From contig JAKAEZ010000005.1 in the NCBI GenBank assembly GCA_021819825.1, positions 6,542-70,541 of the forward strand: DNA of 64,000 bases, given 5' to 3'. The DNA is from Planctomycetota bacterium. GTDB taxonomy: Bacteria > Planctomycetota > Phycisphaerae > WQYP01. Below are positions 9,484 through 10,375 of this stretch, piece by piece (position 1 is the stretch's first letter; each line of letters starts with the position of its first letter). Made by a program: the position numbers and the translations under genes. The notes under the pieces are model-generated. The model saw only the letters and a list, made by a program, of their open reading frames with translations, was not told where the DNA came from and did not search any database.

Positions 9484-9686
9484 ACCACGAACCAAGCCCA
9501 TACGTCCGACTCGACTGCCGCACATGCAGACAAATAGTCATCTACACCAGCAACACGGACCTATTGCGAAGCTACGCCCGCCAGCACCACGGAAAACACC
9601 CAGGACACTGGCTACAGGCGACCATGTACCACGCCCCGACGCGCAAGGAAATCACGATCGACGTACCCAACCGGGAGGCCGAATAA
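9480..9686 (+). CDS. Small CxxC...HH..HPGH putative zinc-binding protein
   Basis: 68 aa from a GTG that overlaps the upstream stop (GTGA): VNHEPSPYVRLDCRTCRQIVIYTSNTDLLRSYARQHHGKHPGHWL... Same spacing as 9283-9483. Confidence 0.45.
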   Translation: MNHEPSPYVRLDCRTCRQIVIYTSNTDLLRSYARQHHGKHPGHWLQATMYHAPTRKEITIDVPNREAE

Positions 9687-10375
9687 TGACCAACACCACT
9701 ATAGCCGAAACAAATGCCCGCAACACATGGCTAAAATTGCTGGCGATCATCGCCATGATATTCGACCACGCCGTATACGGATGGATCATCCACCACAATC
9801 TACACACCGAGTATTGGCAAGGCTGGAGATCCCCGGGAAGAATCTGCATACCCATTTTCAGCTACTTAATCGCTTGGAACATGGCCCACAACACCCGCAA
9901 CCCGCCGCGATACGCCACCCGACTGGCCATCATGGCCATCATATCGGAACCCATCTACTGGCTATACTTCGGATACAACGGAAACGCTTTCATACCGCTG
10001 GCCGCCGGAGCCATCGCGATCATAGCAATCCAAAACCGCAATATATGGCTACTGGCCTTGACCGCCCTATTAACCGCAGCAATCGCCCACGCCTGCCAGG
10101 ACGCCACGATCATCGCGCAAACTGCATTAACGGGGACAGCCTACCTATGGATAACCACACAACGCCCGGCCGCACTACTGGCCAGCCTTGCACTCATGCC
10201 CGCTCTCAACGGGCTTTGCATACCCTTTACGCTGATGATACCGATCACCATAGCACTTATCGCTTGGGCCATGCACGGGCCAGCCACCCGCCCCATAAGA
10301 TTGCATAAAGCAATGTTCTACGCCTTCTACCCGCTGCACCTGCTCGCACTGCTGCTTGTTTGGGGGCCAGCATGA
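9686..10375 (+). CDS. TraX-family membrane acyltransferase-like protein
   Basis: 229 aa. The N-terminus ...NTWLKLLAIIAMIFDHAVYGW matches the TraX hallmark (LK.iA...M..DH). The protein is polytopic and hydrophobic throughout. GGGAGG lies 7 nt upstream. Start taken at the internal ATG of track ORF 9452-10375. Confidence 0.6.
   Translation: MTNTTIAETNARNTWLKLLAIIAMIFDHAVYGWIIHHNLHTEYWQGWRSPGRICIPIFSYLIAWNMAHNTRNPPRYATRLAIMAIISEPIYWLYFGYNGNAFIPLAAGAIAIIAIQNRNIWLLALTALLTAAIAHACQDATIIAQTALTGTAYLWITTQRPAALLASLALMPALNGLCIPFTLMIPITIALIAWAMHGPATRPIRLHKAMFYAFYPLHLLALLLVWGPA

Follow-up and report, generated by a model that had tools for sequence, protein, structure and literature searches.

TraX in an inovirus-type prophage of Phycisphaerae

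A gene for a TraX-family membrane protein, a relative of the F-plasmid protein TraX, is by the gene content of the loci compared here a conserved component of inovirus-type prophages of roughly 10-14 kb in Phycisphaerae/Planctomycetota. The member described here lies within a 64,000-nucleotide stretch of contig JAKAEZ010000005.1 of a Planctomycetota bacterium (assembly GCA_021819825.1, positions 6,542 to 70,541), referred to throughout as the window; coordinates are those of the window unless a related locus is named. The element is a 10.4-kb prophage of inovirus type in a Phycisphaerae chromosome, with its predicted genes on one strand. TraX is no occasional passenger, as it is under strong purifying selection and present in every family member sampled, and the prophages extend TraX-carrying, dif-integrating inoviruses to the Planctomycetota of acid mine drainage and sediments.

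The gene occupies an open reading frame (ORF) that starts with ATG at 9686, ends with TGA at 10373-10375, and specifies a 229-residue protein containing WLKLLAIIAMIFDHAVYGW. A search with the Pfam TraX profile (PF05857, cut-off 25 bits) gave a score of 86.7 bits (E 2.7e-24) and a near full-length alignment in which residues 15-225 correspond to profile positions 4-216 of 217, and in PHROGs the protein matches phrog_5529, 'transfer protein'. The ORF is thus assigned to the TraX family as the initial annotation had proposed, and a chance match is excluded. The translational coupling suggested at the same time is seen on both sides of the gene: the TraX start codon is shared with the TAA of the upstream ORF (9684-9686) in the sequence TAATG at 9684-9688, and a 52-aa ORF begins with an ATG at 10372 that runs into the TraX stop, in the sequence ATGA at 10372-10375. 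A Shine-Dalgarno sequence, GGGAGG, is positioned 7 nt upstream of the TraX ATG. A location within the phage morphogenesis block had also been claimed; the prophage context stands, but TraX is not among the core morphogenesis genes. It lies instead at the far end of that group, downstream of Zot, of a conserved 347-aa ORFan and of a pair of small CxxC genes, and upstream of a group of small regulatory-looking genes. A scan of the prophage for promoters and terminators gave nothing above shuffled expectation, with no convincing promoter before TraX; the best promoter-like match (11156-11183, 11/12) is upstream of a 68-aa gene near the right end.

TraX is conserved across the prophage family

TraX is linked to Zot in the window and in the related loci P0004/L003, P0003/L006 and L009, P0006/L064, and L069. 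Since these loci were found through TraX, their TraX content proves nothing, and the family was therefore resampled through Zot. All five of the Zot homologues on long enough contigs (44-73% identity) have TraX downstream on the same strand, and these TraX proteins, 41-48% identical to that of the window, keep the K-x9-DH and YxFYPxH motifs. What lies between Zot and TraX differs among members, and may be nothing, a small CxxC gene, a gene of about 150-200 aa, or one for a polytopic protein of 536-558 aa, with TraX as the constant element.

The L064 locus (1-4949) has a different inovirus backbone, and its Zot is without detectable BLASTP similarity to the window Zot. Its TraX belongs to the window clade (about 35-37% identity) and is upstream of genes for 76-aa, 425-aa and 97-aa proteins, which are followed by Zot, such that TraX here precedes the structural genes instead of following zot. 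No relatives were found in IMG/VR with an alignment of the TraX clade, and a scan of JGI metagenomes with TraX yielded only two, one of which (L073) belongs to a mobile element that is AT-rich, encodes a topoisomerase and an integrase, and lacks Zot.

Predicted structure and selection

An AlphaFold2 model of the window TraX built with 28 homologues (predicted local distance difference test score, pLDDT, 93.8; predicted template modelling score 0.90) has some 9-10 membrane helices spanning residues 3-226, with which the hydropathy segments agree; the protein is predicted to consist of membrane helices only, with no soluble domain. TraX has been described as a protein with nine transmembrane helices, in agreement with the model (PMC12423673). 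Within the first helix, K17-x10-H28 is the counterpart of the R-x10-H motif of the AT3 acyltransferases, and lysine in place of the arginine of this motif is reported for TraX (PMC12423673). Nine residues (K17, D27, H28, G51, R52, P56, N100, Y215 and H218) are invariant in a set of 33 TraX proteins, among them one F-type TraX that scores above the equivalog cut-offs and two TraX proteins from P-type plasmids.

Comparison with the close variant L069 gives a ratio of nonsynonymous to synonymous substitution (dN/dS) of 0.059 for TraX at dS 0.30, a constraint on par with that on Zot (0.095) and on host genes (0.085-0.097). As judged from these sequence comparisons, the gene is intact, under strong purifying selection, functional, and core-like. 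These data bear on the possibility that TraX has no catalytic role in the phage, and is either a decaying passenger from a conjugative element or a purely structural membrane partner of the assembly machinery. In its favour, F pili are assembled without TraX (PMC7555446), and the TraX region is a zone of variable cargo in the relatives, in which different genes of 150-560 aa are inserted. Nonetheless, the low dN/dS of TraX, the retention of all family-invariant residues, including the putatively catalytic ones, in every family member, and the presence of the gene in 5/5 relatives sampled through Zot despite their sequence divergence weaken a non-catalytic explanation, and we regard it as very improbable.

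Relationship to TraX genes of cultured phages and plasmids

The initial annotation knew of no characterised inovirus with such a gene, and this proved incorrect. PHROGs has a family for the gene, phrog_5529, and seven cultured Inoviridae carry a PF05857 gene after zot. These homologues were found by searching a phage collection by tblastn with ORF192 of SMA6, and the phages, all from Xanthomonas or Stenotrophomonas, are SMA6, Xf109, Cf1c, XacF1, XaF13 (record MN335248.1, there named Vibrio phage XacF13), Xf409, and fSU1. In the records examined the gene directly follows zot and is annotated as 'trbP-related', 'TrbP' or 'transfer protein'. XacF1 ORF9 has been likened to the TraX family and the F-pilin acetylation protein, with speculation on pilus modification (PMC4076744), and XaF13 ORF-8 is listed as TrbP (PMC6992868); no functional test of a phage-borne TraX or TrbP was found in the literature searched. 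One further record, a 5.5-kb 'Bacteriophage sp.' (MT838246) with a TraX fragment, has no Zot and was not counted as an inovirus.

The Xanthomonad phage genes share with the window gene a PF05857 match, a position downstream of zot on the same strand, and residence in small, integrase-less phages of the XerCD/dif type. Nonetheless, the two groups differ in several respects. The Xanthomonad phage gene directly follows zot whereas that of the window is separated from it by three genes, the TraX proteins are only about 28-31% identical, the Zot proteins have about 25% identity confined to the P-loop region, and the window host belongs to a different phylum, the Planctomycetota. The Xanthomonad phage proteins also pass the NCBIfam TrbP model (NF010454; 290 bits for SMA6 and 299 for Cf1c, with a cut-off of 206), whereas the window clade scores 25-40 bits and the window protein itself 39.9. 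The F-type TraX equivalog TIGR02755 similarly gives the window TraX 25.7 bits, below its cut-off of 149.35, and no match to the second F-type equivalog, NF010260, was reported for it; a control F-type TraX scored 416 and 481 bits with the two models respectively. By these profile scores the window gene belongs to a TraX subfamily other than TrbP and F-TraX.

In a neighbour-joining tree of 33 TraX sequences, the Xanthomonad phage proteins group with P-type plasmid TraX (bootstrap 93%), and the window clade groups with P0007 (bootstrap 100%), whose gene has relaxase, type IV coupling protein and MobC-like genes beside it. The location of this nearest outgroup in a conjugative element points to another capture, separate from the first. 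The window TraX was therefore probably acquired independently of the Xanthomonad copy, and the simplest reading of the tree is that unrelated filamentous phages have captured TraX from conjugative elements twice. Whereas the association of TraX with inoviruses was already known, a separate TraX subfamily and Planctomycetota as the host phylum are, on the sequences compared, new.

Candidate acceptors for the phage TraX

F TraX is the only TraX-family protein with a known substrate, and is required for N-acetylation of the first mature residue of F-pilin, which is made with a 51-aa leader (PMC7555446). It resembles the window protein in its PF05857 match, length (246 aa compared with 229 aa) and polytopic membrane architecture, in the invariant K...DH, GR, N, Y and H residues, and in its presumed class of substrate, small filament subunits that have one helix and are made with a long leader. 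Unlike F TraX, the window gene is phage-borne and outside a tra operon, with no TraA, TraQ or other pilus genes nearby. The AT3/TmAT enzymes (such as OafB and HGSNAT) are in the same Pfam clan and share the basic residue-x10-His motif in the first transmembrane helix (TMH1); a common mechanism has been proposed, in which an acyl group is transferred from cytoplasmic acyl-CoA to an extracytoplasmic acceptor. They differ in having ten helices rather than nine, TraX is without their accessory domain, and their acceptor is a sugar hydroxyl, whereas the known TraX acceptor is a protein amine. TmAT enzymes bind acyl-CoA in the cytoplasm and pass the acyl group across the membrane to an acceptor on the far side, and TraX is their most divergent, borderline member, a divergence attributed to its protein substrate (PMC12423673).

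If the phage protein works in this manner, acetyl-CoA would be bound from the cytoplasmic side, with K17 in place of the TMH1 arginine, and H28, with further invariant polar residues of the outer bundle half, would pass the acetyl group to an acceptor on the periplasmic face of the inner membrane. When the model is oriented with its N-terminus inside, the Arg/Lys-rich loops 70-79, 117-119, 159-160 and 198-207 are cytoplasmic and H28, R52, N100 and N175 are in the outer half, consistent with an extracytoplasmic acceptor.

A candidate acceptor is encoded within the prophage itself. The 111-aa candidate major coat protein has a leader of about 50 aa that ends in AHA at a predicted cleavage site; an S/T-rich segment (STSGSTT...) then leads into a single hydrophobic helix and a basic C-terminal tail. 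In L003, L006 and L074-L078 a protein with this conserved C-terminal helix is in each case encoded immediately before the pIII-like gene, and every family member has the same layout, with a leader of about 40-55 aa ending in AxA, an S/T-rich N-terminus, one hydrophobic helix and a basic tail; the mature N-termini in the family would be STSGSTT, TTSTSTT, SSTGATA and TITYT.... The coat protein of Cf1c is similarly organised (AFA/SGGGGD, with the slash at the cleavage site), and mature F-pilin begins with AGSSGQ. By analogy, the candidate coat protein appears to have the topology of F-pilin, with a long leader, an AxA motif, an S/T/G-rich N-terminus and a single helix, and would likewise be stored in the inner membrane. 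We therefore entertain as a working model, to which we give somewhat less than an even chance, that the window TraX acetylates the N-terminus of the phage's own major coat protein, newly exposed by leader cleavage, and that acetylation would remove an N-terminal positive charge displayed on the virion surface.

Several points weigh against coat acetylation. The substrate is assigned by analogy only, and no sequence similarity of the candidate coat protein to the TraA/TrbC pilins was detected (there is no Pfam match). F TraX is dispensable for pilus biogenesis (PMC7555446), which puts the benefit of coat acetylation in question. Among species-representative genomes TraX is found at 51 loci, mostly in Clostridia and Bacilli with some in archaea, and 50 of these are not beside Zot or obvious pilus genes, the sole Zot neighbour being a Planctomycetota locus, such that the TraX family must have other acceptors. 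Foldseek searches with the TraX model gave no match in the PDB with E <= 0.001 (HGSNAT, 8vli_B, ranks 30th with E 1.6 and a template modelling score of 0.27) and nothing significant in BFVD, and a profile search of PDB sequences with TraX also gave no match; without a significant Foldseek match, the transmembrane acyl transfer mechanism rests on sequence motifs and the literature. Finally, metatranscriptomes of the same study contain no contigs matching the prophage, and are uninformative.

An alternative acceptor is the pilin of host type IV or conjugative pili, which commonly serve inoviruses as receptors; its acetylation by the phage TraX could block superinfection or alter motility or adhesion of the lysogen. 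Pilin is the only proven substrate of TraX (PMC7555446), the authors of the XacF1 study connect ORF9 both with fewer or modified type IV pili and with the lost twitching and virulence of infected cells (PMC4076744), and P0007, the nearest non-phage relative of the window TraX, is in a conjugative element with host-like base composition. The XacF1 link is speculation without a mutant, however, and the window TraX is coupled to the virion-assembly block and not placed with the regulatory genes. Type IV pilins, moreover, have their own N-methylation chemistry, and no pilus or type IV secretion genes are present among the window genes checked. Overall, we consider modification of a host pilus to be unlikely.

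TraX might also O-acylate an envelope glycan, such as lipopolysaccharide, capsule or peptidoglycan, giving exclusion of the serotype-conversion type or protection. Temperate tailed phages do remodel surfaces with such enzymes, and the phage Oac-type O-antigen acetylases are AT3-like. Most chromosomal TraX genes are in organisms without conjugative pili, and nearly all members of the TmAT superfamily and Pfam clan to which TraX belongs acylate extracytoplasmic carbohydrates (PMC12423673). Against this, TraX as the most divergent TmAT member lacks TMH9-10, again attributed to a protein substrate (PMC12423673), the window protein carries neither an SGNH fusion nor any other domain on the acceptor side, and neither TraX nor its neighbours matched a defence system in PADLOC. 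A glycan acceptor accordingly seems to us quite improbable.

Returning to acetylation of the coat, an unrelated group of inoviruses, that of Xanthomonas and Stenotrophomonas, has TraX in the same place but from another subfamily, which suggests that the gene is useful to filamentous phages generally. A broader proposal, which we offer with more reserve than the coat assignment itself and hold to be rather unlikely as a whole, is that inoviruses took up pilin-type acetyltransferases from conjugative elements on two or more occasions, once in Xanthomonadaceae phages and once in Planctomycetota phages, and that with these enzymes each phage acetylates its coat protein while it is still in the membrane, ahead of assembly. 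If coat acetylation does occur, selection would repeatedly have favoured covalently modified N-termini on the inovirus virion surface, and a single enzyme family would accept conjugative pilins and inovirus coat proteins interchangeably. Acetylation of a coat protein or of a pilus receptor is now a concrete hypothesis, for which the cultured phages XacF1, Cf1c and SMA6 provide a ready system.

Prophage organisation and boundaries

All plausible genes from about 970 to 11390 are on the forward strand (Table 1), in an order typical of inoviruses, with small coat-like single-helix proteins, of which the one at 3875-4210 is the best coat candidate, and a large adsorption protein followed by pVI-like and pI genes, and synteny is seen in nine related loci. 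The roles of the coat, pIII and pVI proteins are inferred from size, position and hydrophobicity.

Table 1. Predicted features of the prophage, and accessory genes of related loci.
Feature	Position	Strand	Basis or comment
Left attachment site, dif-like	946..984	-	Reads GGGTCCGATAA-TATATG-TTATGTTAAAT; complete XerD-type arm
Putative rolling-circle replication initiator, 439 aa	2057..3376	+	Rep_trans-like; phrog_33635
Candidate major coat protein, 111 aa	3875..4210	+	Sequence inspection
pIII-like putative adsorption/minor coat protein, 768 aa	4314..6620	+	Position and size
pVI-like small membrane protein, 122 aa	6617..6985	+	Called in close variant L069; role assigned by position
Zot/pI-type assembly ATPase, 400 aa	7090..8292	+	PF05707, phrog_197, phrog_1675
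347-aa conserved ORFan	8243..9286	+	Restricted to this phage family
Two tandem small paralogues	9283-9483 (66 aa), 9480-9686 (probable 68 aa, GTG start)	+	CxxC...H...PGH pattern
TraX-family polytopic membrane protein, putative acetyltransferase, 229 aa	9686..10375	+	PF05857
52-aa protein, N-terminal hydrophobic segment	10372..10530	+	Called in L069 and L078; dN/dS 0.039
Three small genes: 116 aa, 74 aa, 68 aa (ribbon-helix-helix-like regulator)	10547..11388	+	ORFs; putative roles
Right attachment site, dif-like	11364..11402	-	ACGTCCTATAA-TATATG-TTCTGGCGAAT; XerC-type arm and spacer as left, XerD arm degenerate
536-558 aa membrane protein (related loci)	L065 3-1679, L074 9846-11486, L075 6153-7763, L076 9341-10999, L067 121-1731		
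206-aa protein (related loci)	L003 11127-11747, L065 2637-3257, L074 12450-13070		

The prophage is bounded by direct repeats that stand 10,418 bp apart, and the same two dif-like sites flank the relatives L003, L006/L009, L069, L074 and L077. The XerD arm of the left site is identical to that of E. coli dif. The pattern is as in the XerCD-integrating filamentous phages XacF1, Cf1c and CTXphi (PMC4076744). No integrase gene was detected in these prophages, and with dif-like sites at their ends they were presumably integrated by the host XerCD recombinases.

The replication candidate has a weak match to Rep_trans (PF02486, 21.2 bits, below the 29.6 cut-off) and a match to the phrog_33635 endonuclease family (E 1e-6), and is 50-68% identical to the product of the syntenic gene in L003 and L006. 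Zot is more firmly assigned, scoring 47.4 bits against a PF05707 cut-off of 20.3. The pIII-like protein has no Pfam match, and is 31-35% identical to proteins of 744-833 aa at the same position in L003 and L006; the dN/dS of the pVI-like gene is 0.063 (compared with L069). The candidate major coat gene is bracketed by a 22-nt inverted repeat (3837-3858 and 4274-4295, 91% complementary), the core of which, CTAAGCCGGGCCGTC, is identical in L069 and could form a long-range stem in mRNA or single-stranded DNA (ssDNA).

The 347-aa ORFan occupies the post-zot position where Ff phages have the secretin gene. It is syntenic in L003, L006 and L069 with a dN/dS of 0.074. A search of 5.8 billion proteins turned up only six homologues, and Pfam, PADLOC and the PDB gave no match; its AlphaFold model was unreliable (pLDDT 42) and not used. 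Both of the small CxxC genes that follow are intact in L069, the second being the gene to which TraX is coupled, and a 67-aa CxxC homologue is directly upstream of TraX in L006, L065 and L074. A third paralogue with the CxxC...H...(P)GH pattern is located at 1096-1293, giving three in the prophage of 65-68 aa, perhaps zinc ribbons; none of the small CxxC proteins has a family match. At the right end, the 68-aa gene is conserved in position in L003 and L006, and a match of its product to APOBEC1 (21.5 bits compared with a cut-off of 27) is without deaminase motifs and was dismissed as spurious.

Some genes near TraX in the relatives are absent from the window. The 536-558 aa membrane protein, with several predicted hydrophobic helices in its N-terminal part, is encoded upstream of TraX or of its CxxC gene in many relatives, and might constitute a surface-modification cassette together with TraX; a precomputed DUF6311 label on the 536-aa protein of L075 was not reproduced with Pfam and is unconfirmed. 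A 206-aa protein (MIIIGPR...GWGRMY...PWGWDNGAYQA...) with no Pfam match is encoded after TraX in several relatives. In L076, TraX is followed by a gene for a Phage_GPA-type replication protein (12310-13539; PF05840, 64 bits), which suggests exchange of replication modules within the family.

Strand bias and variation among populations

The most striking feature of the region, ahead of the TraX gene, is the extreme strand bias of this phage family. The coding strand of the prophage (985-11390) has base frequencies of A.31, C.32, G.22 and T.15, and at four-fold degenerate sites T is 5.9% and A 31%, compared with 17% and 15% respectively in the host. L006 shares the T scarcity at these sites (5.6%) and L003 is A-rich (47%), whereas L064, another TraX-carrying inovirus, has the usual pattern with T at 34%. 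The bias amounts to surplus C->T and A->G changes on the non-coding strand, opposite to the situation in ssDNA phages, whose coding strand is usually T-rich, and the strand that is exposed or packaged as ssDNA might be antisense to the genes.

The flanks of the prophage are chromosomal, with asd to the left and, to the right, a gene for an NAD-dependent epimerase followed by transporter, tRNA synthetase and TatC genes. Where the host proteins share a 90%-identity cluster with named sequences, these carry the annotation Phycisphaerae and in one case mine drainage metagenome. Sequencing runs that contain the sequence are mine-drainage and sediment metagenomes. In the source sample the depth of the prophage (27.2) is equal to that of the chromosome (27.6-29), and there is thus no sign of active replication in that sample. 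Three other metagenomes contain, across window positions 900-12200, a variant of the prophage with about 95% identity, covered roughly half as deeply as the flanks, and contigs of other samples diverge at 973/974, inside the left attachment site, into unrelated sequence, TTAAATAACCCATAAAAATTT.... The attachment site is therefore polymorphic in the populations of the other samples, being empty or otherwise occupied, and the element is polymorphic in natural Phycisphaerae populations. In the pIII-like gene of the other-sample variants, the segments 4568-4876 and 5386-5739 are replaced by unrelated sequence of similar length, and dS between the window and L069 varies from about 0 to 0.74 along the prophage, which together suggest mosaic recombination and rapid change in the adsorption protein.

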